Below the pieces are notes generated by a model. It did not search any database. It worked only from the letters and a program-made list of their open reading frames with translations, and was not told the origin of the DNA. DNA of 59,520 nucleotides from assembly GCA_964423425.1 (NCBI GenBank), contig CAYRES010000004.1, positions 74,736 through 134,255 on the forward strand, written 5' to 3'. The stretch's first letter is position 1; each line of letters begins with the position of its first letter. Positions 1,138 through 25,386 of the stretch are shown in pieces. The stretch comes from an uncultured Gaiellales bacterium (GTDB taxonomy: Bacteria; Actinomycetota; Thermoleophilia; RBG-16-64-13). The position numbers were made by a program, and so were the translations under genes.

Positions 1138-1151
1138 ACAGTCCCGCTCCG

Positions 1152-1221
1152 GGCGTCGCCGCCGTGGTCGGCGGCGACGCCGCCACGGCTCCGGCCCGCT
1201 ACTCGGCAGTGGGCCGGAGCC
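1152..1221 (+). other. Two tandem GC-rich stem-loops in an intra-operon spacer
   Basis: GGCGTCGCCGCCG-tggt-CGGCGGCGACGCC (13-bp perfect stem, 1152-1181) and GGCTCCGGCCCGCT-N7-AGTGGGCCGGAGCC (1187-1221, one G-U pair). No U-tract follows. Confidence 0.6.
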
Positions 1222-1266
1222 CCCCCAAGCCGGCCGAGCGGACGCCGAGAGAGAGGAGCACACGGC

Positions 1267-4437: not shown

Positions 4438-4470
4438 GGGCTGTGGGGAGCAAAGGAAAGGAGGGGGTTC

Positions 4471-5973: not shown

Positions 5974-5978
5974 GAGAG

Positions 5979-6506: not shown

Positions 6507-6758
6507 TGATTGCCCGGCCGTGCTTGTGTCGGAGGGGACTTGGGATCGCTGATGAGAGAGGGTAGGCAGTGCGGACTTGTGAGGCCTGGTTTAAACACGA
6601 CCTGAACTCACTGCAGCCTCCGGACGTTTCTCCATAGGCAGCTTGCGGCCTCTTCTCTCGGGGCTGCTGTACTGACCGTTCTTCCTACGAGTACTCGTAA
6701 GACCGTGCTGGGTCTCCACTCTCGACCAATGCGCCCTCAGTCAGGGGGTGGGCACATA

Positions 6759-8135
6759 GTGGACACAGTGATACGAAACGCTAGATTGGCGACAGTCGAA
6801 GGCGAGGTCCGTGAGGCCACTATCGGCATACGGGAGGGGACAATCGCCTGCGTCGTCTCATGCGAAGGAACAACGAGGCTGTCAAGAGGAGACATTCCCA
6901 AGAGTAGCCGCACAATTGATGCGTCCGGGAGATGGGTATTGCCCGGCCTGGTAGACTGCCATACGCACTTCGGGGCCTTCCTGCCGTTCGAAGAAGACTT
7001 GGTGACAGAGACGAGGGCTGCGGCTGTGGGTGGGGTCACGACTGTGTTCCATGTCATCTTGGAAGCCGGATCAATCCTTGCCCGTCTCCCGTACTACTTG
7101 GACGCGGTCCGCCGGCTCGCGGTGGTCGATATGCACTTCTGGGCTGCGTGCATGACGGAGGAGCACTTGTGCGAGATCCCCGCCCTGCGTCGACGCGGCA
7201 TCCGCGGCTTCAAGTTCTTCCTGTCGTACAAAGGGGATGAAATGGAAGACGTCGGCATCTACGGCATCGACTACGCGTACCTGCAGCGCGGTTTGGAGCA
7301 GGTGGCGGCATGCGATGGGGTGGCCGTGGTGCATGCAGAGAACTATGAACTCCTGCAATTGCACAAGCAACGGCAGGTGGGGCGCAATGACTTCGAGTCC
7401 TTCTGCCGGTCCCGTCCTTCCATATGCGAGGAAATCGATGCATATGCCGCATGCCGGATGGCTCAGGAAGCCGGCGCGGAGTTGTATCTGGTGCACATCG
7501 GCTCGGCCGACGTGGTCGATATCGTCCGTCGTTTTCGTCGACGCGGCGTCAGAGTGTATGTGGAGACAAGTCCTCGCTATCTTCTGATCGACGAGACCGG
7601 CACCGGCTTGGCAGAACCTGAACTGGCCCTGACTACTCCCAGCTACAAGCCTGCCGGGCATCGCGAACGTCTGTGGACGGCCGTCGGGGAGGGTGCCGTG
7701 GATACGGTCGCCACCGACAGCGCCGCGAACACCCTTGGAGAGAAGGTCGGTGCCGGCAGTGTCTGGCGAGCACAACCCAGCTGGCAAGAGATGCCGACCT
7801 CACTTGCATCCATGATGACGCACGGAGTGAATCAAGATCGCGTGACCATGTCACAGCTTACCGCTCTCATGTCGACAAACGCAGCCCGCATCTTCGGACT
7901 GTATCCGCGCAAGGGGTCGGTGGTTGAAGGGGCAGATGCAGATCTGGTGATAGCTGACGACGAGGCCACGCGGACCGTGGAGCGCTGCGCGCACTCAGCG
8001 TGCGACTACACGCCCTACGAAGGTCGCTCACTTACGGGATGGCCGGTGCTCACCATGGTCCGGGGCAACGTGGTCATGGACGAAGGTGCGATTACCGAAG
8101 GACCCGGACTCGGCAGGGCGATCGGCGTGGAGTAG
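6759..8135 (+). CDS. Cyclic amidohydrolase (dihydropyrimidinase/allantoinase/D-hydantoinase family)
   Basis: PGLVDCHTH (HxH), AAAVGGVTT, FKFF (carbamylated Lys), VHAEN, VH, ATD and NAARIFGLYPRKG..GADADLV. Start trimmed to GTG 6759. Confidence 0.88.
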   Translation: MDTVIRNARLATVEGEVREATIGIREGTIACVVSCEGTTRLSRGDIPKSSRTIDASGRWVLPGLVDCHTHFGAFLPFEEDLVTETRAAAVGGVTTVFHVILEAGSILARLPYYLDAVRRLAVVDMHFWAACMTEEHLCEIPALRRRGIRGFKFFLSYKGDEMEDVGIYGIDYAYLQRGLEQVAACDGVAVVHAENYELLQLHKQRQVGRNDFESFCRSRPSICEEIDAYAACRMAQEAGAELYLVHIGSADVVDIVRRFRRRGVRVYVETSPRYLLIDETGTGLAEPELALTTPSYKPAGHRERLWTAVGEGAVDTVATDSAANTLGEKVGAGSVWRAQPSWQEMPTSLASMMTHGVNQDRVTMSQLTALMSTNAARIFGLYPRKGSVVEGADADLVIADDEATRTVERCAHSACDYTPYEGRSLTGWPVLTMVRGNVVMDEGAITEGPGLGRAIGVE

Positions 8136-10503: not shown

Positions 10504-10504
10504 G

Positions 10505-10984
10505 TCACTCACCTCCATTGGACGCGGCCAGTACGGCCTCCACGATCTTCTTATAGCCGGTGCATCGACAGAGCGTCCCCGACAGTCCATTCTTCACGTC
10601 CTGCTCTGTCGGGGTCGGGTTGTGGTCGAGTAGTGCTTTGGCTGTCAGCAGCATGGCAGGGGTGCAGTATCCGCACTGTACGGCCCCCTTCTCAACAAAA
10701 GCTCTCTGCAACGGATGCAACTGGCTCCCCTTGGCCAGTCCCTGGACGGTGGTGATCTGGCGGTCACACGCTTCGATCGCCAACATCAAGCAGGAGAGAA
10801 TGGGCTCTCCGTCTACCAGTACGGTACAGATGCCGCAGTCCCCCCGGTCACAACTCCGGTGCACCCCGGAGACCCCCAGATCGTCACTCAGAACTTCGAA
10901 AAGCAGTGCGTTGGCGTCAACCAAGACATCTCTGCGCACTCCGTTGACGTAGAAAGTCGCTGGTGTCTGTTTCACAGTTCTCAC
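10505..10984 (-). CDS. Xanthine dehydrogenase-family [2Fe-2S] small subunit
   Basis: CDRGDCGICTVLVDG...SC and QCGYC...LCRCTGY cysteine motifs. Confidence 0.95.
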   Translation of the reverse strand: MRTVKQTPATFYVNGVRRDVLVDANALLFEVLSDDLGVSGVHRSCDRGDCGICTVLVDGEPILSCLMLAIEACDRQITTVQGLAKGSQLHPLQRAFVEKGAVQCGYCTPAMLLTAKALLDHNPTPTEQDVKNGLSGTLCRCTGYKKIVEAVLAASNGGE

Positions 10985-10989
10985 CCCCC

Positions 10990-11877
10990 CTAGATCCCAG
11001 CGATCTTGGTCGCCGTTGCTTCAAGAGTCCGACGAACAAGCACCTCGACCATGTGTCGGCGGTACTCGGAAGTGGACCTCATGTCGGTGATTGGCTTCAC
11101 TAGCGGGTCGGTAGCTGCGGCTGCAGCGGTCTCGCGTATGGTCGCGTCATCCAGGGTGCGTCCCACCAGGGATGCCTCTGCTTCTGCCGCTCGGATTATC
11201 ACCGGTGCTACGGCACCAATGGCAATCCGGGCCGACTGCACGACGCTCCGATCGACGACCAGGTTGACGGCCACTGTGAGCTTCGATATATCTGGCAGGG
11301 TCCGGGTGAGGTTGGTGTATGCCCCGACCGTTCCCGCCGGCTGGGCCGGTATCTCCAGTGCTTCCACGACGTCTGTCGGCCGCAGGCAGGTCTTCTTTGC
11401 GCCTGTACACAAGGATGCCACCGGAATCGCGCCGTTGCCGTTGGCACCAGCCAGCTTGAGCGTGGCGTCGAGGGCGATCAAAGCCGTGAGGATGTCGGAG
11501 GCCGGCGTGCCCACGCACACGTTGCCAATGATCGTCCCCATAGTCTTGACCTGCACGGAATGAATGTTGCTGAGAGCGTCATGAAGAAGCGGGCAGTCCT
11601 GTTGCACCACGGGGGAGAGTTCGGCATCGCGGATGGTTGTGAGTGGTCCCAGCTTGAGGCCTTGCACCCGGTCTCCGTCGATGTAGCGCAGGCCGGGGAT
11701 GCACTTGAGACTGACCACGGTCTCCGGAGGCTCCGTCATGCCGCGCTTCATAGCGTCGAGCAGCGAGATGCCGCCGGCCATGACGGCAGCGCGGTTCGAG
11801 GATACGAGCAGCCCGGCGGCCTCATCCATATCGGCGGGCTGAAAGAAGTCGAACTCAGGTAGCGCTCTGTAGAGCAT
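10990..11877 (-). CDS. Xanthine dehydrogenase-family FAD-binding medium subunit
   Basis: MAGGISL, MGTIIGNVC..PASD and PITDMRSTSEYRR. First gene of the M-S-L operon, with SD AGGAG. Confidence 0.92.
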   Translation of the reverse strand: MLYRALPEFDFFQPADMDEAAGLLVSSNRAAVMAGGISLLDAMKRGMTEPPETVVSLKCIPGLRYIDGDRVQGLKLGPLTTIRDAELSPVVQQDCPLLHDALSNIHSVQVKTMGTIIGNVCVGTPASDILTALIALDATLKLAGANGNGAIPVASLCTGAKKTCLRPTDVVEALEIPAQPAGTVGAYTNLTRTLPDISKLTVAVNLVVDRSVVQSARIAIGAVAPVIIRAAEAEASLVGRTLDDATIRETAAAAATDPLVKPITDMRSTSEYRRHMVEVLVRRTLEATATKIAGI

Positions 11878-12193: not shown

Positions 12194-14125
12194 CTACGCC
12201 AGACGGTCGGGTTCCCGAGTCCGCGCGGTGATCCGAGTGAGCTGTCCTGCCAGGACCTCCAGAGCTTCCCAACCGCTGGATACGGCTACCGAATGGGGAT
12301 GGTAGTTGACTGAGGCGCCAATCCCGATGCAAAGGAGCTCGATGCCGCATCGAGACAACCAGGGTGCAAGTGTTCCACGATAGTAGTCTGAGAGACTCTC
12401 TCCGCCTGCTCGATGTACCGCGGCTGCGTTCGGATGTCCGTCTGTAATCACGAGAATGAGTCTGCTTCGTTCCGCAACCGATTCGGCTCTCTGTTTGGCA
12501 AAGGCAATCGCTTCGATCTCGTGAGTACCGGAAGAGAGAAAACCGCCGTCACCACCGAAATATGGCTCGAGGCTGTCATGTCTATGATCGAACAGCAGTG
12601 TGATGGCCGATGAATACAGCGAGACATCCACGGGAATGCGCGATTCTACGAGCACTTCGGCGAAGGCATACGAGCATGCGAGGGCCTTCTGCACGTTGTC
12701 GTCCCGCAACATTGACGGTGAGACGTCGACCAGAAGATGAAAGTAGTAGGAAGGCCGATCCGACACGCGGGCGTGCTGAAAGAGGCGCAGGTCCTCTTGC
12801 GTTACGAAGCGGCGCGCGTTCCCTATTCCGATTCGATGGCCGGTACGGAAGCGACCCTTGAACCGGTGGCGGCAGTTCGCCTGGATGGCTCGCCGTAGGG
12901 CAACTCTGTGAGCCCCGAACCCGCTCAATGCCCACGGTCCGTACTTCTTCGCGACGTCGGTCCAAATCCCCTTTGCGCGGGGGTCCGGCGCCACGTGGCG
13001 GGCTTGAGCGACCCCGATCTCGTCCATGATAACCAGACCACGGCTCACATGAGGGTAGGTGATCGGTCGTCTCTCAGCCAGCCGTTCCTGCGCTGGTGTC
13101 AGCGCTCCCTGAACGTGCAGGCGCCTTTGGCCGTCCACTCGACCCGAGAGCCCCATCACCCGCCTGATGCCATCGCTTGGACTCTCTCTCTGTACTCTGT
13201 AGTCGCAATCTGACGCGCCACCGGCTGACTCGGCGCTGTCGCCACTGGTCTGCAGTTGCGGGGGCGCCTGCCCTGCATGTTCCTTCACCGCGCGCTTTTC
13301 TACTGTCTCGCCCTGGACATGCCGTGATAGCTGTTCCTGCTGCACAGCAGAGTGGTGTTCGGCGGCCGTCGGAGGATGCAAGAAGTGACTCAGGCGCGGG
13401 AGAAGCTCCCGCGCGCACCACATTCTCAGTTCCCGGCTACTGGAGGATGCAGCCAGCAGTGACGCCCTCAACTCATCTGCGGTGCTGATCACGTCCGGCG
13501 GAAGCTGCCCGTGCGCAACCATGTCTTCGCCTTCCCACAGCTGCAAAAAGAACATCGCGATGAGACGATCGAGGTGGTTGCCCCCGGGCGCCTCTGCAAC
13601 GCGTACAACTTGAAGGGCATGACCCCGCAGGTGACGCCGAGCTCCCCGAAAATCGCGTAACAGGTGGCGTTCAACCCGCGCGTCTTCCAAGGTATCCGTG
13701 ATCGTCTCCAGCAACTCTCGCTGATCCGCAGACTCCAAGATCTGCCCCGGCCACTCCTCATCGGTACCGGGTGTGAGCGGGCGGAAGGTGTCCGATCCGT
13801 ACAGGACATGACCGAGTTCGTGCAGAAAGCCGGCGAGGAACGCATCGACCTGGGGGCTTTCCCGGCACGGGTGAGTCGAATCGAGCAGGCGCATGGCCTT
13901 GTGAAGATCGAGACTGATACTCACTGAGGTACGACCCGAAGCAGGTTGTTCTCGCAGCACCGTCTGGGTGCCGGCGCCGAGACGCCAGTTCACGTTGACG
14001 TCGATACCGCTGACGGCGGTGCCGAAGATGGAGGCAGCCAACCCAAGATCTGCAAGACGCCGATCCAGCTCATCGGCCCGATACTCGGATACGACCGCGG
14101 CGGGGGAAGACACTGAAACCGACAC
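12194..14125 (-). CDS. vWA (MIDAS) domain protein, CobT/NorD/CbbO-like partner of a MoxR ATPase
   Basis: C-terminal LVDVSPSM (DxSxS), GT and VITDGHP. N-terminal HELGH...LEDARVE. Lies directly downstream of the AAA gene. Confidence 0.8.
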   Translation of the reverse strand: MSVSVSSPAAVVSEYRADELDRRLADLGLAASIFGTAVSGIDVNVNWRLGAGTQTVLREQPASGRTSVSISLDLHKAMRLLDSTHPCRESPQVDAFLAGFLHELGHVLYGSDTFRPLTPGTDEEWPGQILESADQRELLETITDTLEDARVERHLLRDFRGARRHLRGHALQVVRVAEAPGGNHLDRLIAMFFLQLWEGEDMVAHGQLPPDVISTADELRASLLAASSSSRELRMWCARELLPRLSHFLHPPTAAEHHSAVQQEQLSRHVQGETVEKRAVKEHAGQAPPQLQTSGDSAESAGGASDCDYRVQRESPSDGIRRVMGLSGRVDGQRRLHVQGALTPAQERLAERRPITYPHVSRGLVIMDEIGVAQARHVAPDPRAKGIWTDVAKKYGPWALSGFGAHRVALRRAIQANCRHRFKGRFRTGHRIGIGNARRFVTQEDLRLFQHARVSDRPSYYFHLLVDVSPSMLRDDNVQKALACSYAFAEVLVESRIPVDVSLYSSAITLLFDHRHDSLEPYFGGDGGFLSSGTHEIEAIAFAKQRAESVAERSRLILVITDGHPNAAAVHRAGGESLSDYYRGTLAPWLSRCGIELLCIGIGASVNYHPHSVAVSSGWEALEVLAGQLTRITARTREPDRLA

Positions 14126-14140
14126 GACCGCCTCGGACCC

Positions 14141-15250
14141 TCAGACCAGGCTGCTCGTGTCCCAATCGGTGATGTAGGCAAAGATCTGATCCCGGAACAC
14201 CGTCTTGGTGCGTCTGTCCAGCAGGTCGAAGAACGCCAGGCGCGCGCCTTCCACCGGACCTACATCGCGGGTGAACTGTGCCCAAGTCACCAAGAGACCG
14301 GTACTCATCACGAAGTCGAATGCTCGCGCCCGATCGTCCAGCATACGGCGCGCAATACGGGCCACCTCGAGCATCCCCTCAAGGGTTGTTGCGAGCCGGC
14401 CCTCTCCGAACTCGGGAAAGCGCTCCACCAGTATCATTCGCTCCACTCCCATATCCGGGAAGTCCACTCGCAACGATGCCCAGCGCCGCAGGTAGGCGGC
14501 CGAGAGATCTCTCGTGCCCGGGTAGAGGGACACGTATTCTGCCGGGTTGAACGTCGCGAAAAGGCGGCAGTGATCGTGCTGAGTGACAACCTCGTTGTCT
14601 TTCTCGACCAGCACCAGAGCGCGACTTCCATCCAAAAGTCCGTGCAAGGCAAACCATATCTCCGGCCCCGTGGCGTTCATCTCTTCCAGCAGCAAGAGCC
14701 CACCCCATCTCACAGCTGTTGTTACCAAACCGTCCTGAAAAGCTACCCGTCCTTGCCCCACGGGGAGCAGTTTGCCGACAATGTCGTCGGTGGTCGAGAG
14801 GCCATGAAGGTTCATTCTGTACAGAGGTGCTCCGAGCAGTGCAGCAAAGCAGCGCACCGCCTCGGTCTTTCCCAGCCCCGTATGTCCATGGAGCGCAAGC
14901 GGAGTATCGCGAAGGTATGAGAGCGCGCAGCGGTAGAGGAGGCCTTGGTGATCGTGGTACCCATGGGCATGAGGAACGAGATTCTCGCGTCCCGCTACCA
15001 TGTCGCCGGTCCAGCGCCGCAGCAGTACACCTCTTGCGCACTGGTCTCCGCGCTCGTCCGTGAGTAATGCCGCGAACAAGAGCCACCCATCAGCCAGGCT
15101 GTATGTGCGAAGAAGGGGTGACCGCACAGGTGTGGCACTCTTGCCGCCCGTGCGTGTGACGGCGGTGCTCAACAGTTCTTCCAGGCTTGACCCGGAGAGA
15201 GTCATCCCTTCAGCCACCGCAGGTTCGATGTGGCACTCGCCGGTCGGCAT
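14141..15250 (-). CDS. MoxR-family AAA+ ATPase (CbbQ/NirQ/NorQ-like)
   Basis: Walker A GHTGLGKT, FQDGLVTTAVR.G.LLLLEEMN, ATFNP and LSAAYLRRW. Start ATG 15250 follows GAGGAG. Confidence 0.85.
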   Translation of the reverse strand: MPTGECHIEPAVAEGMTLSGSSLEELLSTAVTRTGGKSATPVRSPLLRTYSLADGWLLFAALLTDERGDQCARGVLLRRWTGDMVAGRENLVPHAHGYHDHQGLLYRCALSYLRDTPLALHGHTGLGKTEAVRCFAALLGAPLYRMNLHGLSTTDDIVGKLLPVGQGRVAFQDGLVTTAVRWGGLLLLEEMNATGPEIWFALHGLLDGSRALVLVEKDNEVVTQHDHCRLFATFNPAEYVSLYPGTRDLSAAYLRRWASLRVDFPDMGVERMILVERFPEFGEGRLATTLEGMLEVARIARRMLDDRARAFDFVMSTGLLVTWAQFTRDVGPVEGARLAFFDLLDRRTKTVFRDQIFAYITDWDTSSLV

Positions 15251-15381
15251 AGCTCTCCTCCGTCGACCGCCTCGATGGCGGCCCGAGCCGTATGAGCGTA
15301 GTTGAATCAGCGTAACCAGCCCGCGAAAGGAGCGCAAGGCTACGATCCCTCCTTTGGGCATCAGGGGACCAATGTGGTAGA

Positions 15382-15471: not shown

Positions 15472-16614
15472 ATGCTGGTCTGGTCTTGGAAATCGGGTAA
15501 CGGACCGCAGCAGCGCCTCGGCCCTGGCGCTTTGCAGACCCAGACGGCCCTTGATGCGGGGTCGGGTGCGGACCTTGCGTCCTTCTTGGCTCAGCTACAC
15601 AAGACACTCGACGTCGACGTTCTCCTTTCCACGTACATCTCCATCATCGGGGGATTTGTGCCGGCTCCGGCAGCCGCCATCTACCTCCTGGATCCCGGTA
15701 CCGGGCGGCCTACGAGACTTGCCGCACAGGGAGCGGACGAGCACCTCTTTCCTCGGTTTCTCTCCGCCTACGAAACCGGCGGGCGCGAGTGCGATCCTGT
15801 CTACTCCCGTGTCAGCAAACAGCTGAAGATCACCTCGAGCAGCATGCTGCCGAAACGGGAGCGTTGGGAGAACCACCCCTTCCACCGCGTGCTCTCGGTC
15901 GGTGCGCTGGAGCACATTCTCGAGGCGCCGATAGTGACGTCGGACAAGGGACTGGTGGGAACCCTCAACTTCGGACGCTCCGGGACAGAACCTCGCTTCA
16001 GCGACGATGACGTCACCCTGGTGGATCGCATTGCGGAGCATGTCTCGATCGCGATTAGCCACGCAGCCGAAGTCACTCGACTGCGCGAGCGCGACGGAGC
16101 GATGGATGGGGTGTTCCAGGCACTCGGTACGGCCGTGATGATTACCGACTCCGCGGGGGAGATACAGTTCCTCAACTTGTCCGCCCGCCACCTCTTTCAG
16201 GAATGCGAAACCAATCCTGCCCTGAAAACCATTGTCGCTGAGGGGCTGCGTCACAACCTCGAAGCTCTGACTGACCTATCTCGAGTGAGCCGATGCCTTC
16301 GCCTGCCTCCCCGCACTCTCAACCGTTCTCCGTATCTGACCATGAACTCGGTGGCTGTCGGCTCCGGCAGGGGGTTGGTTGCCACCTTCTGGTACCAGCC
16401 AGGTGAGAACCCAAGCTTTGAGTACCTTCATGATCTGCTCACCCCGCAAGAAATCAGGGTGCTGGAGATGCTGGCGCAGGGGCTTGAGAACAAGGAGATC
16501 GCGGAGTTCATGACCATCAGCGTCGACACGGTGAAGTCTCACCTCAAGCGCATCTTCGCCAAAATGCGTGTTGCCTCGCGCACTCAACTCCTGAGCCAAG
16601 TCTTCTGCCGGTAG
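15472..16614 (+). CDS. LuxR-family transcriptional regulator with GAF and PAS-like sensor domains
   Basis: C-terminal LTPQEIRVLEMLAQGLENKEIAEFMTISVDTVKSHLKRIFAKMRVASRTQL HTH. GAF-like APIV..LVGTLNF.R...FSDDD. PAS-like AVMITDSAGEIQFLN. Confidence 0.9.
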   Translation: MLVWSWKSGNGPQQRLGPGALQTQTALDAGSGADLASFLAQLHKTLDVDVLLSTYISIIGGFVPAPAAAIYLLDPGTGRPTRLAAQGADEHLFPRFLSAYETGGRECDPVYSRVSKQLKITSSSMLPKRERWENHPFHRVLSVGALEHILEAPIVTSDKGLVGTLNFGRSGTEPRFSDDDVTLVDRIAEHVSIAISHAAEVTRLRERDGAMDGVFQALGTAVMITDSAGEIQFLNLSARHLFQECETNPALKTIVAEGLRHNLEALTDLSRVSRCLRLPPRTLNRSPYLTMNSVAVGSGRGLVATFWYQPGENPSFEYLHDLLTPQEIRVLEMLAQGLENKEIAEFMTISVDTVKSHLKRIFAKMRVASRTQLLSQVFCR

Positions 16615-16727
16615 GATATCCCGTTCCAGCGCCGGTCCGTGCTGGGGAACCCGCTGTCGGGCCGATCTTGCTCGTGGGGTTGCGCCGAATCTCCTCTTGG
16701 CCTCCCCCGGCCGTGCTCTCACCGCTA

Positions 16728-16772
16728 TCACCCAAACGAGTAATCGACGAGGTCTACGCCCCTGCCTAGAAT
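16728..16772 (+). promoter_or_regulatory. Activator-dependent promoter: degenerate operator plus -10 TAGAAT
   Basis: TCACCCAAACGAGTAA (16728-16743) lies 23 nt before TAGAAT (16767-16772). There is no consensus -35. Confidence 0.55.
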
Positions 16773-16964
16773 CGGCCTAGGTAGGGACGAAGAGCTTGGT
16801 CGAGGGGAACCAGCCTCGATCCCACACGAGGGGGGAACGAGATGTCCGCTTTGTTTGACTCCTCCTGACCGCTCCAAACCGTAGCCTGCGGGGGCGGCCA
16901 CGTGGTGCCGTATCGGGCTCCATCAGCGACAAGTGAACCGCACTATGAACTCATGGGGGAACAC

Positions 16965-19109
16965 ATGGCTTACAAGATTGGCATCGACGTAGGAGGAACG
17001 TTCACCGACTTCCTGCTGATGGCGGACGACGGGAGCTTCGAGGTTTACAAAGCTTCTTCTACTCCCCAGGATCCATCCATCGCCGTGCTCAACGGACTGA
17101 CTCAGATGGCGAACGCCAAGGGAGTGAGTCTCGAGGAGTTTCTTCCTCAGGTCTCGTCGATCGCGCACGGCACCACCATTACCACCAACGCCGTACTTAC
17201 AAGCAACGTAGCCAAGACCGGATTGATGACTACGGAAGGGCACCGTGACTGGCTCCAGACCCGCCGCGGCCTCAAGCCCAGCTGCTACGACGCCAAGGAA
17301 ACACCACCCGAGCCCATCGTACCCCGCAAGTTGCGCCGCCCCGTGAAGGAAAGGACGGCTTTCGACGGTCGGGAACTGGTCCCGCTCAGCGTGGACGACG
17401 TACTTGAGGCCGCCCGTGCCTTCAAGAAAGAGGGCGTGCAGGCCGTGGCCGTGTGCTTCCTGAACTCCTTCGCCGATCCCGAGCATGAGAAGAAGGCGAA
17501 GGACATCCTGGAACGGGAACTCCCGGGCGTGTACGTCTCCGCCTCCAGCGACGTGTTACCGCAGGTGCGCGTGTACGAGCGCGGCTCCACCACGGTTTTC
17601 AACGCCGCCGTGGGCCCCATCCTTCGCAGCTACATCAACAATCTGCTGGACAAGCTCGAAACCAGCGGCTTTCAGGGCGTGCTCCTCATCATGCAGTCCA
17701 ACGGCGGCATGATGTCGCCGCGAGTAGCCATGGACTTCGCTGTCAACACGCTACTCTCCGGCCCGGCCGGCGGCGCCACCTCCGGCGTGTTCTTCGGCGA
17801 TATCCACGAGTGCAAGAACGTCATCACCATGGACATGGGCGGCACCTCCTTCGATGTCTGCCTCATCCGCGAACGCGAACCGGAGATCTCCTCCGAGTTG
17901 GACGTAGCCATGTTCCGCATGGCCGCTCCATCCATCGGCATCTACACAGTGGGCGCCGGCGGTGGCTCCATCGCCAATGTGGACCACGACGGCATGTTCC
18001 GGGTGGGCCCCCGGAGCGCCGGTGCTTTCCCAGGCCCGGCCTGTTACGGCACCGGTGGGACCGAGCCGGCCGTGACCGACGCCGACCTGCTACTGGGTTA
18101 CCTGGATCCGGACTACTTCCTGGGCGGGACCATGAAGATCGATCAGGAACTCTCCCGGCAGGCGCTAAAGACCCACGTGATGGACAAACTCAATCTCAGC
18201 GAGGAAGAGGCCGCCTGGGGTGTGTACAAGATCGTGAACAGCAACATGGCCCAGGCCGTGCGTGTCACCTCCATCAACAAGGGCTACGACCCACGCTCGG
18301 CCTTCCTGGTGACGGCCGGTGGCGCGGGCCCGGTGCATGCCTGCGCCATCGCCGATGACCTTGAGGCCCCCATGATCCTGGTGCCCAAGATCTCGTCGGT
18401 CTTCTGCGCCACCGGCATGTTGATCTCCGATATCAAGCACGACTTCGTGCGTGTGCTGCACATGATCTTGGATCCCAAGAACATGGATGTACCCGGGTTC
18501 AACGCCCGCATGGAAGAGATGAAGCAGGAAGCCCTGGATGTTCTGAAGCGCGAGGGGATCGCCTCGGACCGCATCCAGCTCAACTACTGGGCGGACATCC
18601 GTTACGAGGGTCAGTTCAATGAGATCGCCACCCCGGTGCCCATGAAGAACGGGAGCCGCTTCGCCTTCGGCATGCTGTCCGACCTGAACGACGCCTTCAA
18701 CAAGCGTCACGACACCCTCTTCGGCTACTCGCTGCCCGGCTTTACGCAGGAATTGATGTCACTGCGGCTCTCGGCCGTGGGCACGGTGGACAAGCCCGAC
18801 TTCCGGGAGACCGGGTTTGTGGGCGAGGACGCCTCCCAGTGCATCAAGACCTATCGCGACATCTACTGGGACGGCGCGTGGCTCGATGCCGCCGTCTACG
18901 ACGGTCCCAAGATGGGACGCGGCCACAAGCTGGTCGGTCCGGCCATCATCGAGGAGCCGACCACGACCATCGTGGTGCCACCGCACTGGCAGCTCTTCTG
19001 CGACCGTTACAGCAACTACGTCCTGAACCACGTCGGCATGTCCTTGGAGGAGAGCTTCCGCCTCGTGCGGTGGGACACCTGCCGTGAAGAACAGGCCGCA
19101 AAGGTTTGA
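16965..19109 (+). CDS. Hydantoinase A/5-oxoprolinase family ATP-binding subunit
   Basis: IGIDVGGTFTD, HGTTITTNA, LLSGPAGG, DMGGTSFD, VGAGGGSIA, GPRSAGAFPGPACYG and GGAGPVHA. Confidence 0.93.
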   Translation: MAYKIGIDVGGTFTDFLLMADDGSFEVYKASSTPQDPSIAVLNGLTQMANAKGVSLEEFLPQVSSIAHGTTITTNAVLTSNVAKTGLMTTEGHRDWLQTRRGLKPSCYDAKETPPEPIVPRKLRRPVKERTAFDGRELVPLSVDDVLEAARAFKKEGVQAVAVCFLNSFADPEHEKKAKDILERELPGVYVSASSDVLPQVRVYERGSTTVFNAAVGPILRSYINNLLDKLETSGFQGVLLIMQSNGGMMSPRVAMDFAVNTLLSGPAGGATSGVFFGDIHECKNVITMDMGGTSFDVCLIREREPEISSELDVAMFRMAAPSIGIYTVGAGGGSIANVDHDGMFRVGPRSAGAFPGPACYGTGGTEPAVTDADLLLGYLDPDYFLGGTMKIDQELSRQALKTHVMDKLNLSEEEAAWGVYKIVNSNMAQAVRVTSINKGYDPRSAFLVTAGGAGPVHACAIADDLEAPMILVPKISSVFCATGMLISDIKHDFVRVLHMILDPKNMDVPGFNARMEEMKQEALDVLKREGIASDRIQLNYWADIRYEGQFNEIATPVPMKNGSRFAFGMLSDLNDAFNKRHDTLFGYSLPGFTQELMSLRLSAVGTVDKPDFRETGFVGEDASQCIKTYRDIYWDGAWLDAAVYDGPKMGRGHKLVGPAIIEEPTTTIVVPPHWQLFCDRYSNYVLNHVGMSLEESFRLVRWDTCREEQAAKV

Positions 19110-19159
19110 GTACCGGAATGCGAGACCTCACGAATGAGACCTCAAAAGGGGGCGGCGCA

Positions 19160-20929
19160 ATGACCCAAGATTGCGAAGTCAAGCAGGTAGATCCGATCCT
19201 GGCTGCCGTCTTGGACAGCCGGTTCAACGCCATTGTCGATCTCGTGGCCGGTGCCATGATGCGGACCTCCATGTCTCCCATCTTCGCCGAAGCTCGCGAC
19301 ATCGCCGCGGCCATCTTCGACAAGGACCTGCGGCTCATCGCTCAGCGCGACTGGCTGCCGGTCCTGGCAAGCAACTGCAGCGTGGCCATCAGAGAGATAG
19401 CCGAGTCGTGGGAGGGGGAGATCGAGGAAGGCGATGTCTTCATCCACAATGACGCCTTCGGCCGTAACAGCCACCAGCCGGACGTCAACGTGGCCAAGCC
19501 CATCTTCTACAATGGCCAGATCGCCTTCTGGGCCATGGCCAAGGGCCATCACGCCGACATCGGTGGCAAGGGGATCTGCGGCTATAACCCGGAGGCCAGC
19601 AGCTGCTGGGACGATGGGCTGGTGATCAAGCCGGCCAAGCTCTACATCGCCGGCAAGAAGAACCGCAGCCTGTGGGACTTCATCAAGGCCAATACCAAGC
19701 TGCCGGTGCTGGGTGAGGCAGACCTCAACTGCCAGATCGGCGCATGTGTCACTGGTGAACGTGCCCTGGTGGCACTGTTGGACCAGTACGGCGTGGACGC
19801 GGTGCAGGATTCGCTGGACATGATCATGGACGCTACTGAGCATGGGCTGCGGGCCAAGATCAGCGAGCTCAAGCCGGGCGTCTACTACGGCGAGAAGGCT
19901 ATCGATGACGACGTGGTGAACCGCGGCATGCCGGTGACAGTGCGGGCGAAGGTGACCGTGGGCGACGGCGAGATCGAGATTGACCTCTCCGACAGCGACC
20001 CGCAGGTGCCTTCTTACATGAACAGCACCTGGGGCAACACCTACTCCGTGTCTACCATGGCCGTGCTGTACTTCATGCCCGGAGACACCAAGCGAAACGC
20101 GGGCGCTCTGCGGCCCATCAAGCTCATCACCAAGAAGGGCACCTTCGTCGATCCCGAGTTCCCGGCTGCGTGCAGCATGTGCACGTGCTCCATGACGGAA
20201 ACCATCTTTGAGGCCATCACCCTGGCTCTGGCCGAGACCAAGCCGGAATGGGCGACGGCGGCGCACGGCAAGATGAGCCTGCACATCTCCTGCGGCCTCA
20301 ACCCCAACAACCAGCGGCCCTTCGCCACCATCGATTTCGCCACCTGTGCTGAAGGATCCGGCGGGACCATGGGCCACGACGGCTGGGCCATGGGCGGCCC
20401 CACTCATTGCATGGGCCAACTGCGCAGCCCAGACCCTGAGATCATGGAGATCGTGACCCCGGTGACCGTGTGGCAGCTGGAGCTGACCGGCGGCCGTGAA
20501 GGCGCCGGCAAGTACCGCGGCGGTGTGGGAGCCAACTACAGGGTGGAGTACACGGCCGACGCGGAGTGCGTGGAATGCGGGCAGGGTCACGCCGACTACG
20601 CGGTGCCCGCCGGCCTCTTCGGCGGCGGCAATCCCATCCCCAGCGCGCCGCGTGTGTTACGCAAGGCCAATGGGGAGCGCGAGCGTATCCCGGTCAACGT
20701 CTTCTGGAGCGTCAAGGCGGGAGACATCTACGAGCAGGACATGCAGGGCGGCGCCGGCTGGGGTAACCCCTTCGAGCGCGATCCGGAGAAGGTGCTCAAG
20801 GACTACGACGATGAGTTCCTGTCCGCCGCTGATGCCAAGGAGATCTACGGCGTGGTGATCAATGAGGCGGCCGGTGCCATCGACTGGGCTGCCACCGAAG
20901 CCGCCCGCGCGGCCGGGGCGCCCAAATAG
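19160..20929 (+). CDS. Hydantoinase B/5-oxoprolinase family metal-binding subunit
   Basis: RTSMSPIFAEARD, GDVFIHND...HQPD, HHADIGG, GAGKYRGG and GGAGWGNPFERDPE. Confidence 0.93.
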   Translation: MTQDCEVKQVDPILAAVLDSRFNAIVDLVAGAMMRTSMSPIFAEARDIAAAIFDKDLRLIAQRDWLPVLASNCSVAIREIAESWEGEIEEGDVFIHNDAFGRNSHQPDVNVAKPIFYNGQIAFWAMAKGHHADIGGKGICGYNPEASSCWDDGLVIKPAKLYIAGKKNRSLWDFIKANTKLPVLGEADLNCQIGACVTGERALVALLDQYGVDAVQDSLDMIMDATEHGLRAKISELKPGVYYGEKAIDDDVVNRGMPVTVRAKVTVGDGEIEIDLSDSDPQVPSYMNSTWGNTYSVSTMAVLYFMPGDTKRNAGALRPIKLITKKGTFVDPEFPAACSMCTCSMTETIFEAITLALAETKPEWATAAHGKMSLHISCGLNPNNQRPFATIDFATCAEGSGGTMGHDGWAMGGPTHCMGQLRSPDPEIMEIVTPVTVWQLELTGGREGAGKYRGGVGANYRVEYTADAECVECGQGHADYAVPAGLFGGGNPIPSAPRVLRKANGERERIPVNVFWSVKAGDIYEQDMQGGAGWGNPFERDPEKVLKDYDDEFLSAADAKEIYGVVINEAAGAIDWAATEAARAAGAPK

Positions 20930-20991
20930 CCACACACAGCATGGGGGCCGGGTATCCGGCCCGGCCTCCCCTCACAAGGACGGAGCGTTTG

Positions 20992-21744
20992 ATGAAGATC
21001 TGGTGCCAGCTACCGATCAGCATGCCCGAGAGCCACCCGGCGTACGAGCCCTACTATGCTCTCCTGCGTGCCGATTATGCCACCGTAAAACGCCCGGGCA
21101 CCGAGGTCACTGTCAAGGACGTGCCGACCGGCTTGTCCAGCCCGGACGAGATCACGTACGTGGGCAACCGTTTCCGGAACGATCGGGAAATCCTCACCTC
21201 CATGCTGCAGGCCGAAGCGGAGGGCTACGATGCCGTCGCCGGGGCCTGCTTCTTCGACGGCGCCATCCGTGCTGCTCAGCAGATGATGGACATCCCGGTG
21301 GTGGGCCCGGCTCAGGCTTCCATGCAACTGGCCATGCTGCTCGGCACACGCTTCGCCACCATCACCTCCGATCCGCGCTGGATCCCGGAGATGGAAGCAC
21401 ACATCAGCGAGGTGGGGATGCGCGAGCACGCGATAGGGCCGAAGCTCATGCGCGCCATCACTCTGCCATCGGACATCTTCTTGGGATGCCTGGGCGGGGA
21501 CTACCAGCCCGCCGTGGACAATTTCACGGGGATTGCTGAGGGCTGCATCGAGGACGGCGCGGATGTCCTCATCGCCGGCTGCGGCCTCCTGTCCCCAATG
21601 CTCACGGTTGCGGGGCTGCACGAGATCGGCGGCGTCCCGGTCATTGATCCCATGCTCGCATCACTGAAGTACGCAGAGATGCTTGTGGACTACAGACAAA
21701 GCGGATTCCCGGTCAAGTCCACGGCCGGCTCGCTACTGGCCTAA
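20992..21744 (+). CDS. Asp/Glu/hydantoin racemase family protein
   Basis: AEAEGYDAVAGACFFD and GADVLIAGCG (two catalytic Cys), DIPVVG and GVPVIDP. Confidence 0.85.
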   Translation: MKIWCQLPISMPESHPAYEPYYALLRADYATVKRPGTEVTVKDVPTGLSSPDEITYVGNRFRNDREILTSMLQAEAEGYDAVAGACFFDGAIRAAQQMMDIPVVGPAQASMQLAMLLGTRFATITSDPRWIPEMEAHISEVGMREHAIGPKLMRAITLPSDIFLGCLGGDYQPAVDNFTGIAEGCIEDGADVLIAGCGLLSPMLTVAGLHEIGGVPVIDPMLASLKYAEMLVDYRQSGFPVKSTAGSLLA

Positions 21745-21771
21745 CAATCCACGAAGGAGGTGGAGGACCTC

Positions 21772-23421
21772 ATGGCAGACACAGCACATACTCCGGCTTG
21801 GAAGACCAAAGAGGAGCAGGTGTTCGAGACTGGGGCCGGTCTCGACATCAAGGAACTCTACACGCCGGAAGACATCGTGGGGTTAGATTATGACCGGGAT
21901 CTGGGTGCCCCGGGCGAGTATCCGTTCACCCGGGGTCCGTACCCTGGCATGTATCGCGAACGTATCTGGACCCGCAGGTTTCAGGTGGGCTTCGGGACAC
22001 CCCAAGAAACGAGCGAGCGGATTGGCTACCTCGCAGAGACCGGTGCCAACGGCTTCGTCATCACAATCGACCTGCCCACCTCCTACGGTTTCGATTCCGA
22101 CGACCCCATTGCTCGGGGCGAAGTTGGGGTCACCGGTGTGGCCATCAGCACCCTGGAGGACATGGAGACTCTGTACTCCAACACATCCCCGGACAGCGTG
22201 TCCTACGCTCTCTCTATTCGCCCGCCTGTCTCTGCCGTCACCCTAGCCATGCTCTCCTGTGTGGCCGAGAAACGGGGTATACCCCTGGATCGGGTGGTGG
22301 GAACTCAACAGAACGACCCCTTCTACCAGATGAGCGGCGGGCCGTTGCAGACACATGTCCAGTTCTTCCCGCTCGAGGGCATCCTGCGCCTGTGTGTCGA
22401 CAACATCGAGCACATATCCACGAAGATGCCGCGCCTAAATTGGATGGTGACCAACGGTTACAACCTGCGGGAGACGGGAGTGAACGCTGTGCAGGACGGA
22501 GCGTTCTCTCTGTCGCACGCCTTCGACATCTTCCGGATGTGCGTCGATCGAGGCCTGGACGTCAATGTGTTCGCGCGCCGTGCTTCCTTCTTCCTCTCCT
22601 GCTCCATCGATTTCTTCGAGGAGATCGCCAAGTACCGTGCCATGCGCCGACTGTATGCCAAGACCATGCAGGAGCGCTTCGCTGCCACCAACCCCGAGTG
22701 TTGGCGGATGCGCTTCTCGGTGCAGTCCGCCGGGAACACTCTGACCACGCAACAGCCACAGGTCAACATCATCCGGGCGGCCATGGAGTGCTTGGCTGCC
22801 GTCTTTGGTGGAGCCCAGTCTGTGCACCTTTCTTCCTACGATGAAGGCCTGGGTCTCCCCACCGAGGAATCTTCGCGCATCAATCTGCGTACCCAACAGG
22901 TCATCGCCTACGAGACCGGAGTCACCAAGACCGTAGACCCTCTGGGAGGGAGCTACTATGTCGAGGATCTGACCAATCGCTTGGAGTCCGCTATCGCCGA
23001 CAAGATTGCCGAAGTAGAGGAACATGGCGGCCTGGCGAATTGCGTACGCACCGGCTGGTTGGAGCGGGAGATCAACGAGGCCCGCTACAAGAACCAGCGC
23101 GATATCGACAGCAACCGGCGTCCGCTCATCGGTGTCAACCGCTACCGTATCCCTCCTGAGGACGAGATCCCCATCAAGATTCACAAGATCAAGGCCTCCG
23201 AGTGGGGTGAGCGCCGGGCCGACTACCTGCGCCGCTACCGTGCGGAGCGGGATCAGACCGCCTGGGCAGATGCTATGGCGCGAATCGACCGAGCCTGGAA
23301 GGAAGGGGCCAACATGGTGCCGGTGCTCATGGATGCACTCAAGAATCGGGTGACCATGGGCGAATGCCACGAGGCAATGCGCCAGGCACAGGGCTTCTCG
23401 TTCAGGAAGGGAGGTAGGTAA
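21772..23421 (+). CDS. Adenosylcobalamin-dependent acyl-CoA mutase, large (substrate-binding) subunit, atypical specificity
   Basis: PGEYPFTRGPYPGMY, DLPT..GFDSD, GEVGVTGVAI, GT.QND, FFEEIAKYRAMRR, YDEGLGLPTE and VDPLGGSYYVE. Confidence 0.93.
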   Translation: MADTAHTPAWKTKEEQVFETGAGLDIKELYTPEDIVGLDYDRDLGAPGEYPFTRGPYPGMYRERIWTRRFQVGFGTPQETSERIGYLAETGANGFVITIDLPTSYGFDSDDPIARGEVGVTGVAISTLEDMETLYSNTSPDSVSYALSIRPPVSAVTLAMLSCVAEKRGIPLDRVVGTQQNDPFYQMSGGPLQTHVQFFPLEGILRLCVDNIEHISTKMPRLNWMVTNGYNLRETGVNAVQDGAFSLSHAFDIFRMCVDRGLDVNVFARRASFFLSCSIDFFEEIAKYRAMRRLYAKTMQERFAATNPECWRMRFSVQSAGNTLTTQQPQVNIIRAAMECLAAVFGGAQSVHLSSYDEGLGLPTEESSRINLRTQQVIAYETGVTKTVDPLGGSYYVEDLTNRLESAIADKIAEVEEHGGLANCVRTGWLEREINEARYKNQRDIDSNRRPLIGVNRYRIPPEDEIPIKIHKIKASEWGERRADYLRRYRAERDQTAWADAMARIDRAWKEGANMVPVLMDALKNRVTMGECHEAMRQAQGFSFRKGGR

Positions 23422-23423
23422 CC

Positions 23424-23813
23424 ATGGGCACACGCAAGCGAGTGCTCTTGGCCAAGATGGGTCTTGACTGCCACGACACGGGCATAGTCACCGTGGCGCA
23501 GATGATGCGAGAGAACGGCTACGAGGTCATCTACATGGGGCTTCACAACTATGCCGACGCGGTGGTGAATACGGCCATTGCCGAGGATGTCGACTTGATC
23601 GGGGTGAGCTTTCTCTCGGGTCAACATGAGACTCAGACGCGGGAACTTCTGGATGCCATGAGGCAGGCGGAACTGAATGTGCCGGTCATGTGCGGCGGCA
23701 TCATCCCGCCTGATGACGCGCAGGAGTTGAAGCGCATGGGAGTGGCGGACGTCATCGAGCCCGGCACATTGACTGAAGACCTCGTGAGCCGCATCGGCTC
23801 CATCCTGTCCTAG
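23424..23813 (+). CDS. Cobalamin-binding small subunit of acyl-CoA mutase
   Basis: AKMGLDCHDTG (DxHxxG), GVSFLSG and GGIIP. Starts 2 nt after the large subunit. Confidence 0.93.
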   Translation: MGTRKRVLLAKMGLDCHDTGIVTVAQMMRENGYEVIYMGLHNYADAVVNTAIAEDVDLIGVSFLSGQHETQTRELLDAMRQAELNVPVMCGGIIPPDDAQELKRMGVADVIEPGTLTEDLVSRIGSILS

Positions 23814-23838
23814 CGACCGTCACTGCGGAGCAGAGACC

Positions 23839-25386
23839 ATGGATTGGACTCTAGACGAGTATATCCGGCGCAACGGGGCCCGCTACCCGGACAAGCCGGG
23901 CTTCATCATGGACAAGACAACGCGTACATGGAGAGAGGTTGATCGCCGCGTAGACCAACTGGCCCAGGCCCTTCATCGCCTGGGACTGCAGCGCAACGAT
24001 CGTGTGGCCACGCTCATGCACAACTGCCTCGAGTACCCTGAGGCGTACTATGGCTGTGCACGAGCGGGCATGATCGTGGTGCCGTTCAGCTACCGGCTGA
24101 CCGTGCCGGAACTGCATGAGATTCTCACCACAGCCGAACCGGCTCTCATGATCGTAGGTGCTTCCGAAGCACACAAGGCTTTCGCGTTGCGGGAGTTGTT
24201 GCCATCCCTGCAGCATATCTGGGTCGTGGGAGACGACACTCAGCCGGTGGAGCAGAACTACGAGGCGCAACTGCAGGGCTCGCCTTCTACTCCCGCCTAT
24301 TCCCCAAACGGTCAGAACGACACCTTCAGCATCTTCTTCACCAGCGGTACTACTGGACTGCCGAAGGGGGCGATGGTCTCCCATCTCAACCTCGAAGCCA
24401 ACGGCTTCAACCAGTTCGTGGCTGACGGCAGCCGCCACGAGGATGTGAACCTGATCGGCACGCCCCTCTACCACATGGGCGCCGTGTTCATGTCCGTCAC
24501 CTACACTATGCTGGGATGCACCCAAGTGGTCATAGAGAAGTTCGAGCCGGAGCTCTGGCTCGAGGCTCTGGAGCAGAACAGGGCTACGGTCGCGCTGTTG
24601 ATTCCTACCATGATAAACACGGTGCTGAACTACCCGGAACTCTCCGACCACGATCTCTCCAGTCTTCGCCTCATCTTCTACGGAGGCGGCCCCATGCCTC
24701 CTGCTGTGCTGAGGCGCGCACTGGCTGCGATGCCCTGTGGCTTCACACAGGGATACGGGCTCACAGAAACACTCGAAGCCACCTTCCTCGTGGCATCAGA
24801 TCACGAGATCACCGACGGAGATGAGAAGAAACTCTTCCGCCTGGCGTCCGCCGGTCGCGAGGCAACCGGCGCCGATGTGCGCATTATCGACGACGACGGC
24901 AATTCTCTTGGAACCGGCGAGGTGGGGGAGATCCTCATTCGCAGTCGTTCAAACATCAGCGGCTATTGGCGCAATCCCGAGGAAACCGCGGCGACGGTCA
25001 AAGGGACCTGGTTCCACACGGGTGACGTGGGCTACCTCGACGAGGACCGTTACCTCTTTGTGGTCGATCGCAAGAAGGACATGGTGGTCAGCGGGGGCGT
25101 CAACATCTACACGAAGGAGATCGAGAGCGTGATCTACTCACACCCCGCGGTTCTTGAGGCTGCTGTCGTCGGTCTGCCCGACGATCATTGGGGTGAGGTG
25201 GTCACAGCCTGCGTCGTTCTTCGCAACGGACAGAGTGTGACCACAGAAGAAATCACGGAGTACTGCAGCAGTAGGCTGGCCGGTTACAAGAAGCCGCGTC
25301 GGGTGTTCTTCTTGGGGGAACTGCCCAAGAACCCCAGTGGAAAGATCCTTAAGCGGGACTTGAGAGAGGTGCTGGCCGTGCAGTAG
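23839..25386 (+). CDS. AMP-forming acyl-CoA synthetase/ligase
   Basis: FTSGTTGLPKG, GYGLTE, FHTGDVG, DRKKDMVVSGG and LPKNPSGKILK. Confidence 0.93.
   Translation: MDWTLDEYIRRNGARYPDKPGFIMDKTTRTWREVDRRVDQLAQALHRLGLQRNDRVATLMHNCLEYPEAYYGCARAGMIVVPFSYRLTVPELHEILTTAEPALMIVGASEAHKAFALRELLPSLQHIWVVGDDTQPVEQNYEAQLQGSPSTPAYSPNGQNDTFSIFFTSGTTGLPKGAMVSHLNLEANGFNQFVADGSRHEDVNLIGTPLYHMGAVFMSVTYTMLGCTQVVIEKFEPELWLEALEQNRATVALLIPTMINTVLNYPELSDHDLSSLRLIFYGGGPMPPAVLRRALAAMPCGFTQGYGLTETLEATFLVASDHEITDGDEKKLFRLASAGREATGADVRIIDDDGNSLGTGEVGEILIRSRSNISGYWRNPEETAATVKGTWFHTGDVGYLDEDRYLFVVDRKKDMVVSGGVNIYTKEIESVIYSHPAVLEAAVVGLPDDHWGEVVTACVVLRNGQSVTTEEITEYCSSRLAGYKKPRRVFFLGELPKNPSGKILKRDLREVLAVQ

Follow-up and report, generated by a model that had tools for sequence, protein, structure and literature searches.

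A candidate clade of B12-dependent acyl-CoA mutases with a remodelled pocket, encoded in a putative lactam-catabolic operon parallel to the indoleacetate pathway

The DNA examined here is a 59,520-nucleotide stretch of contig CAYRES010000004.1 (positions 74,736 to 134,255 of the forward strand; GenBank assembly GCA_964423425.1) from an uncultured Gaiellales bacterium, and the whole of this stretch is referred to below as the window. It encodes the large (MutL) and small (MutS) subunits of a B12-dependent acyl-CoA mutase. The two genes belong to a row of six closely packed genes on the + strand (16902-25386), which is headed by a transcription regulator:

15472-16614, + strand: GAF-LuxR transcription regulator at the operon head (Pfam GerE 68 bits, GAF_2 35 bits)
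16902-19109, + strand: hydantoinase/oxoprolinase A-type subunit (HyuA) of a predicted ATP-dependent lactamase (Pfam Hydantoinase_A 304 bits)
19106-20929, + strand: hydantoinase/oxoprolinase B-type subunit (HyuB) of the predicted lactamase (Pfam Hydantoinase_B 439 bits)
20941-21744, + strand: Asp/Glu/hydantoin-racemase family protein, 267 aa (Pfam PF01177 91 bits)
21760-23421, + strand: acyl-CoA mutase large subunit (MutL), 553 aa (Pfam PF01642, TIGR00641)
23424-23813, + strand: B12-binding small subunit (MutS), 129 aa (Pfam PF02310, TIGR00640)
23839-25386, + strand: acyl-CoA ligase, 515 aa (Pfam AMP-binding 293 bits)

MutL is read from a GTG start at 21760, with an alternative in-frame ATG at 21772, and MutS follows it after 2 bases. 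Both are members of the acyl-CoA mutase family: MutL matches PF01642 (MM_CoA_mutase) at 554 bits (cut-off 22.1) and TIGR00641 at 507 bits (cut-off 303.8), and MutS matches PF02310 (B12-binding) at 88 bits and TIGR00640 at 116 bits. The DxHxxG B12 loop, which a preliminary description of the sequence had reported as intact, reads DCHDTG at residues 15-20 of MutS. An AlphaFold2 model of MutL (mean pLDDT 73.8, pTM 0.78) was compared with solved structures by Foldseek, and this returned the TIM-barrel fold of the family, with TM-scores of 0.82 to 2-hydroxyisobutyryl-CoA mutase (HCM; PDB 4R3U) and 0.81 to human MMUT.

The pocket residues of MutL were assigned by HMMER alignment with the solved structures of methylmalonyl-CoA mutase (MCM; PDB 1REQ, 2XIJ) and HCM. 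The segments WTIRQYAGF of MCM and WTMRQIAGF of HCM pair with WTRRFQVGF of MutL, which places Gln75 (codon 21982-21984) at the Tyr89 position, and GYHMQE of MCM pairs with GYNLRE, which places Asn235 (codon 22462-22464) at the His244 position. Both substitutions had been proposed at the same codons in the preliminary description, which had named beforehand Tyr, Phe, Ile or Leu at position 89 in a proper alignment as the outcome that would speak against it; the HMMER alignment gives Gln. The proposed loss of Arg207 was borne out in the same way, as the Arg207 loop (the QND segment) carries a 4-residue insertion in MutL (QMSGGPLQT) and Thr198 stands opposite the arginine, and the earlier pairings of SVSMTMN with SYALSIR and of RTHSQT with RFSVQS were reproduced. 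Tyr234, Gln184 and Gln322 of MutL align with Tyr243, Gln197 and Gln330 of MCM. Among the residues that had been listed for position 89 of characterised mutases, Tyr in MCM and Ile in HCM were seen in these alignments; isobutyryl-CoA mutase (ICM) has Phe there, with Gln at position 207, and pivalyl-CoA mutase (PCM) has Leu at position 89, these last assignments being general background.

The remodelled pocket is strictly maintained. In the best 120 relatives listed by a word-indexed search, which are 70-91% identical to MutL, Gln75, Thr198, Asn235, Arg72, Arg154, Ser320, Tyr234, Gln184 and Gln322 are invariant (120 of 120). The closest genomic relative is locus L001, whose protein is 91% identical to MutL; the nonsynonymous (dN) and synonymous (dS) divergences between the two are 0.051 and 1.26, giving a dN/dS of 0.04, and the mutase clade is under strong purifying selection. 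A scan for the clade yielded 58 genomic loci, of which 51 are at least 9 kb and 40 at least 15 kb in length (the latter are termed long loci below). At 24 of the 51 the operon includes a gene for the G-protein chaperone MeaB (PF03308, 309 bits for one representative). A profile search for MeaB found no match in the window, in agreement with the preliminary description; the genome to which the window belongs (G000) does, however, hold a single match above the cut-off, on contig C9 (281 bits). As the pocket is invariant, dN/dS is 0.04 and MeaB often accompanies the clade, the data agree with a functioning cobalamin enzyme whose pocket has been remodelled, and not with a decayed copy.

MutL is distinct from each of the characterised mutases with which it was compared. 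The best match among solved structures is HCM (409 bits, 39% identity), followed by MCM (287-343 bits) and the fused isobutyryl-CoA mutase IcmF (PDB 4XC6; 181 bits, 26% identity), so the tight clustering with a characterised enzyme that might have undone the earlier proposal was not found. A full HMMER scan of 1.84 billion representative proteins returned one sister protein, P0127, which is 54% identical to MutL and also has Gln, Thr and Asn at the three positions; all further matches in that scan are at most 48% identical. In a FastTree phylogeny of 149 rows the window clade and P0127 form a group with 100% local support, and the neighbouring P0128, P0130 and P0132 have Asn at the His244 position and Gly, Gln or Leu at position 89.

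HCM (HcmAB) and the window mutase have in common the split into large and small subunits; HCM differs in having Ile at the Tyr89 position and in retaining His244 (GYHISE), where the window has Gln75 and Asn235, and its genomic context is presumably tert-butyl and 2-hydroxyisobutyrate metabolism. MCM shares the fold and the family, and its Tyr243, Gln197 and Gln330 equivalents are retained throughout the window clade, whereas the Tyr89/Arg207 clamp and His244 are replaced and the Arg207 loop is extended by the insertion. The likeness to ICM and IcmF lies in the lack of a carboxylate clamp and in the reaction predicted for the window mutase, i.e., conversion of a 2-branched monocarboxylic acyl-CoA to a linear one by a thioester shift. 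Rows with the Phe/Gln/His signature are present in the family table, but these ICM-type rows retain His244, and the window mutase is not fused to a G-protein.

The aligned family table (P0127-P0276) has 148 rows, of which 10 are additions: MutL itself, 8 members of its clade and the mutase of the indoleacetate cluster described below. Many of these rows lack both His and Asn at the position of His244, and the Tyr89 and Arg207 positions are very varied. The pockets of the acyl-CoA mutase family in metagenomes therefore appear to be of large diversity, much of it uncharacterised, with the window clade as one well-populated example. The rewritten active site on which the preliminary description had remarked is real, but less exceptional than was thought, as many other clades of the family also lack His244. 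The clade is distinct, widespread and biochemically uncharacterised, and its specificity would be new within a known enzyme family.

The genes around the mutase suggest the metabolic setting. HyuA, which likely starts at the ATG at 16965, scores 704 bits against the NCBIfam model of the caprolactamase alpha subunit (cut-off 1000), and HyuB scores 365 bits against that of the beta subunit, also below the cut-off. Among solved structures, the best relatives of HyuA are the 5-oxoprolinase-labelled 6YRA and N-methylhydantoinase, which score above the acetone and acetophenone carboxylases; for this reason HyuAB is favoured to be a lactamase rather than a ketone carboxylase. The racemase-family protein retains both catalytic cysteines when aligned with hydantoin racemase (3QVJ), which fits a stereocentre adjoining a carbonyl, and it is predicted to be a racemase for such a centre. 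The ligase is predicted to activate the acid released by the lactamase.

The conservation of this arrangement was examined across the loci, whose record titles place them in Betaproteobacteria, Gammaproteobacteria (including Steroidobacteraceae), Geobacter, Planctomycetota, Actinomycetota, Binatia and other taxa. Tallies for the 40 long loci were made by tblastn with proteins of the indoleacetate (iaa) cluster, whereas the open reading frames (ORFs) of the 51 loci from 9 kb upwards were tallied by clustering, a procedure that undercounts, as genuine genes in part of the high-GC loci were displaced by long antisense ORFs. Every long locus has a match to the ligase and to the small mutase subunit (40 of 40 each); HyuB is matched in 36, HyuA in 35 and the thiolase in 22. 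Ligase homologues, 53-84% identical to the window ligase, adjoin the mutase in most loci. By ORF clustering, a long acyl-CoA dehydrogenase (~584 aa) is present at 31 of 51 loci, an old yellow enzyme (OYE)-type flavoenzyme at 9, a TonB-dependent receptor at 9, a fused enoyl-CoA hydratase/3-hydroxyacyl-CoA dehydrogenase (ECH/HCDH) at 8 and a racemase-family gene at 5; members of the racemase family lie near the mutase at 8 of all 58 loci. The fullest operons (L021, L045 and L052) have the order HyuA, HyuB, MutL, MutS, ligase, MeaB, acyl-CoA dehydrogenase, thiolase, second ligase and ECH/HCDH fusion, and at L001 the GAF-LuxR regulator keeps its position. The genes that recur at these loci encode, as annotated, a predicted lactamase, the mutase, a CoA ligase, the long acyl-CoA dehydrogenase and a thiolase.

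NCBIfam scans of the ligases, dehydrogenase, thiolase, OYE-type reductase and molybdenum subunit gave sub-threshold, generic matches only. The OYE/2,4-dienoyl-CoA-reductase-type flavoenzyme is found in betaproteobacterial operons (at L003, for example, at 16234-18183), and its best NCBIfam matches are BaiCD and the long-form bilirubin reductase, both sub-threshold.

In the anaerobic indoleacetate pathway of Aromatoleum, the iaa operon encodes a phenylsuccinyl-CoA/benzylmalonyl-CoA mutase, IaaGH (Schuhle et al. 2021, PMC8360864). Comparison with this enzyme had been proposed in the preliminary description and was made through locus L059 (genome G003). The gene order there is GntR regulator, thiolase, ligase, HyuA, HyuB and acyl-CoA dehydrogenase, then the small and the large mutase subunit, then the FAD and molybdenum subunits of a molybdenum hydroxylase; it is a canonical iaa cluster and equals the published iaa gene set. 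The large mutase subunit of L059 retains Tyr, Arg and His (WTMRQYAGF, FIGRGTW and GYHIRE) and is 37.5% identical to MutL. The phylogeny places it within the Tyr/Arg/His group, where it is joined by a paralogue encoded in G000 (98% support). That paralogue (WTTRQYAGF, LGRGAW and GYHIRE; 54% identical to the L059 mutase) is part of a second, iaa-type cluster in G000, at 1-10500 of contig C7 (locus L063), in which HyuA and HyuB run to the contig end, and which includes an IaaL-like CoA-transferase (40%), an IaaF-like dehydrogenase (43%) and a small mutase subunit (48%). The gene-by-gene annotation of the iaa set is in part general background. Both cluster types also occur in G001, the genome of L003, which has a complete iaa cluster, 93-98% identical to that of G003, plus a cluster of the Gln type. 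Of 20 genomes in the genus of L003, four have a match to the window mutase at 74-76% identity and 15, G003 among them, have a different match at 37-38%.

The window proteins are 45% (HyuA), 34% (ligase) and 32-44% (molybdenum hydroxylase) identical to those of the iaa cluster. Across the Gln-type loci the identities to iaa proteins are uneven: 61-78% for the thiolase (median 69.5%, in 22 of the 40 long loci), 43-55% for HyuA, 32-52% for HyuB, 32-38% for the ligase and 31-39% for the large mutase subunit. An IaaL-like CoA-transferase was found in two of the 40 long loci, at 25-27% identity, and tblastn found no IaaF-like dehydrogenase above 36.5% identity in any of them; the genes of the window include neither. 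The window mutase and IaaGH are alike in being two-subunit B12 acyl-CoA mutases encoded beside HyuA/HyuB, a CoA ligase, an acyl-CoA dehydrogenase and a divergent thiolase, but differ in that the window clade is without IaaL and IaaF companions and that the molybdenum hydroxylase is usually absent beside it. The possibility that the window mutase is an orthologue of IaaGH was rejected, because the iaa mutase diverges from it (~38% identity, with Tyr, Arg and His), groups elsewhere in the tree and is encoded, together with the Gln-type cluster, in single genomes. By this comparison of sequences, the window mutase belongs to a second pathway that is parallel to, and coexists with, that of iaa. 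The uneven identities may mean that the two pathways end alike and have a similar lactam core, and that the side chain differs where the ligase and the mutase act.

A three-subunit molybdenum hydroxylase of the xanthine-dehydrogenase family (605 bits to NCBIfam XdhA, below the cut-off) is encoded upstream of the operon, with subunits assigned by Pfam matches:

8212-11877, - strand: three-subunit molybdenum hydroxylase
8212-10590, - strand: large subunit
10505-10984, - strand: 2Fe-2S subunit
10990-11877, - strand: FAD subunit

This enzyme may make the lactam from its parent N-heterocycle, and its link to the operon is putative. Two further genes, for a VWA-domain protein and an AAA_5 ATPase (12194-15361, - strand), lie between the hydroxylase and the regulator and are missing there in L001; the pair resembles CoxE/CoxD-type maturation factors.

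On balance, we consider it probable that MutL and MutS form a functional adenosylcobalamin-dependent acyl-CoA mutase of a distinct clade, encoded in a lactam-catabolic operon parallel to the iaa pathway. In the route that we envisage, the molybdenum hydroxylase in G000 may first make a cyclic amide, which the ATP-dependent lactamase HyuAB would open; this amide would be substituted on the carbon next to the carbonyl. The racemase-family protein would equilibrate the stereocentre and the ligase would form the CoA thioester. The mutase would then move the thioester carbonyl off the substituted alpha-carbon and onto the adjacent carbon, as in the conversion of isobutyryl-CoA to butyryl-CoA, such that a branched acyl-CoA that blocks beta-oxidation would become a linear one. 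The linear product would be degraded by the acyl-CoA dehydrogenase, a hydratase/dehydrogenase and the thiolase. As far as sequence comparison reaches, the earlier proposal that the lactam hydrolase and the ligase supply a functional mutase with a new specificity is supported by dN/dS, the invariant pocket, the frequent presence of MeaB, the conserved operon and the distance from characterised mutases; the new type of radical rearrangement that had been claimed with it need not be invoked, as the likely shift is of the isobutyryl-CoA to butyryl-CoA type on a bulkier substrate.

The acyl-CoA that the mutase acts on is most likely monocarboxylic and 2-substituted, and would lack the free carboxylate that succinyl-CoA carries. 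A second carboxylate is argued against by the loss of the Tyr89/Arg207 clamp in the MutL alignment, by the absence of the intramolecular CoA-transferase that a dicarboxylate would need (the two IaaL-like proteins noted above, at 25-27% identity, being the only matches in 40 loci), and by the replacement of the decarboxylating IaaF by a different, long acyl-CoA dehydrogenase. A 2-(2-aminophenyl)alkanoyl-CoA is favoured, the leading candidate being 2-(2-aminophenyl)propionyl-CoA derived from 3-methyloxindole or skatole. More specifically, and only tentatively, the clade may be a 2-arylpropionyl-CoA mutase that converts 2-(2-aminophenyl)propionyl-CoA to 3-(2-aminophenyl)propionyl-CoA, which would fill a gap in the anaerobic degradation of skatole (3-methylindole). 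According to a review (PMC11957808), sulfate-reducing enrichments convert skatole via 3-methyloxindole to alpha-methyl-2-aminobenzeneacetic acid, and functional genes for this are lacking. The molybdenum hydroxylase would make 3-methyloxindole, HyuAB would open it to alpha-methyl-2-aminobenzeneacetic acid, the racemase would handle the stereocentre, and the ligase and mutase would feed beta-oxidation to 2-aminobenzoyl-CoA. A literature search covering main texts returned no publication on the clade and none that joins an acyl-CoA mutase with a hydantoinase; among the publications listed, none links a mutase to skatole degradation, and those on 2-arylpropionyl-CoA concern racemases and drugs.

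Several observations weigh against this interpretation. The window's own operon lacks a dehydrogenase, a hydratase and a thiolase, and the best match to the iaa thiolase in G000, on contig C9, has only 41% identity, so that the argument from the iaa thiolase rests on the proteobacterial loci. The molybdenum hydroxylase accompanies the operon in just two of the 40 long loci, although it is present in the window and at L001. G000 (2.69 Mb, 98.6% complete) has no BoxB and no B subunit of a class I benzoyl-CoA reductase, and an aromatic end product in this organism is uncertain for that reason; the genome does have five AOR-family genes, as well as HdrA-like and BadH-like genes. The MutL model is of moderate quality and its pocket loops (47-71, 192-199 and 359-368) are modelled with low confidence, so that the pocket geometry is not readable from it. 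The pocket argument also draws on roles that we assume from MCM, in which Tyr89 and Arg207 presumably bind the substrate carboxylate and His244 presumably acts at the thioester carbonyl.

Some of these points are shared by a serious rival, in which the mutase acts on a non-aromatic acyl-CoA derived from an aliphatic lactam or imide (an alkyl-pyrrolidone, a piperidone or a tetrapyrrole-derived fragment) and the likeness to iaa is confined to the enzyme types. This is a real possibility, if on the whole an unlikely one. The nearest relatives of HyuA are caprolactamase, 5-oxoprolinase and N-methylhydantoinase, the missing BoxB and class I benzoyl-CoA reductase of G000 would be accounted for, and members of the clade occur in taxa as diverse as Proteobacteria, Geobacter, Planctomycetota, Actinomycetota and Binatia. 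The TonB-dependent receptor and the OYE-type reductase, each at 9 of 51 loci, the latter with its sub-threshold likeness to BaiCD and bilirubin reductase, point the same way. However, the thiolase of 22 of the 40 long loci is 61-78% identical to that of iaa, against 31-39% for the substrate-proximal enzymes, and chemical reasoning suggests that the omega-aminoacyl-CoA of a simple aliphatic lactam would tend to re-cyclise.

It is far less probable that the window mutase has the function of IaaGH itself, namely the conversion of (2-aminophenyl)succinyl-CoA to (2-aminobenzyl)malonyl-CoA in the degradation of indoleacetate or oxindole-3-acetate. The two clusters do share a molybdenum hydroxylase, HyuAB, a mutase and a ligase, and in Aromatoleum HyuA and HyuB are 51-55% and the thiolase 76% identical to their iaa counterparts. 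Set against this, the two mutases are only ~38% identical and fall in different, well-supported parts of the tree; the iaa enzyme retains the Tyr, Arg and His that the window enzyme replaces, including the carboxylate clamp; no IaaL-like or IaaF-like companion is found; and G001 and the window's genome carry both clusters.

A paralogue that is regulatory or no longer catalytic, comparable to the inactive beta chain in Propionibacterium MCM, would explain the replacement of three catalytic or substrate-binding residues of MCM, including a His244 that is retained in the MCM, HCM and iaa-type mutases compared here, but is very improbable given that the replacements, like Tyr234, Gln184 and Gln322, are invariant in the 120 relatives listed, that dN/dS is 0.04, that a dedicated B12-binding subunit, its DxHxxG loop intact, and at 24 of 51 loci a dedicated MeaB accompany the protein, and that MutL scores 409 bits against HCM and 90 bits against that beta chain. 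Equally improbable is an ordinary methylmalonyl-CoA or isobutyryl-CoA mutase with unusual residues: G000 does have two mutase loci only and no canonical fused MCM, but MutL falls well below the cut-offs of the NCBIfam equivalogs for MCM (NF006944, 420.6 bits against 876) and IcmF (NF045497, 202 bits against 1500), lacks Tyr89 and Arg207 and is encoded in an operon of lactam catabolism, and in two other genomes with the clade, G001 and G002, an MCM-like gene with 34% identity is present in addition.

Besides the mutase operon, a second module is present next to it in both actinobacterial genomes (7-8135, + strand, in the window; 13703-20936 in L001). It encodes another HyuB, truncated by the start of the window (its HyuA gene immediately precedes it on the contig), together with a second CoA ligase, the carboxyltransferase, biotin carboxylase and biotin carboxyl carrier protein of an acyl-CoA carboxylase, and a dihydropyrimidinase-like amidohydrolase, and may be a lactam-opening route with carboxylation in place of the mutase. 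An Rfam scan of the window gave one tRNA and no cobalamin riboswitch, and promoter and terminator scans of the window were at or below chance. The sequencing runs matched were 19 in number, all labelled as sludge metagenome and all from 2020, perhaps from one campaign, with 12 possible sources and no RNA run listed among them.

Elsewhere in G000, tblastn found five HyuA/HyuB-type pairs, six matches to the large subunit of the xanthine-dehydrogenase family and the five AOR-family genes already noted, which is high for 2.69 Mb and suggests that the organism is an N-heterocycle specialist. On contig C14 (50000-69000, locus L061) an AOR-family gene lies beside an ECH/HCDH fusion, a BadH-like dehydrogenase, an aryl-type CoA ligase and OYE-type reductases, and on contig C9 (84000-103900, locus L062) HdrA-like and GltD-like genes are found close to a thiolase gene and a further molybdenum hydroxylase. 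These genes may be parts of a candidate class II benzoyl-CoA reductase system.

To our knowledge, few specificities of B12 acyl-CoA mutases have been described (methylmalonyl-, ethylmalonyl-, isobutyryl-, 2-hydroxyisobutyryl-, pivalyl- and phenylsuccinyl-type), and each new one has so far opened a pathway or provided a biocatalysis tool. Cultured carriers of the present clade exist, record titles naming Aromatoleum anaerobium LuFRes1 and A. toluclasticum MF63. The clade is large, extends over several phyla and is strictly conserved, and because His244, retained in the MCM, HCM and iaa-type mutases seen here, is replaced in it, it bears on the catalysis of the rearrangement as well as on specificity. 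The operon amounts to a concrete proposal for how anaerobes may pass the blocked alpha-carbon that follows the opening of N-heterocyclic lactams, including the ring-opened product of skatole. Should the clade indeed act on 2-arylpropionyl-CoA, it would be the first B12 mutase known for 2-aryl-branched acyl-CoAs, among which profen-type compounds might be included.

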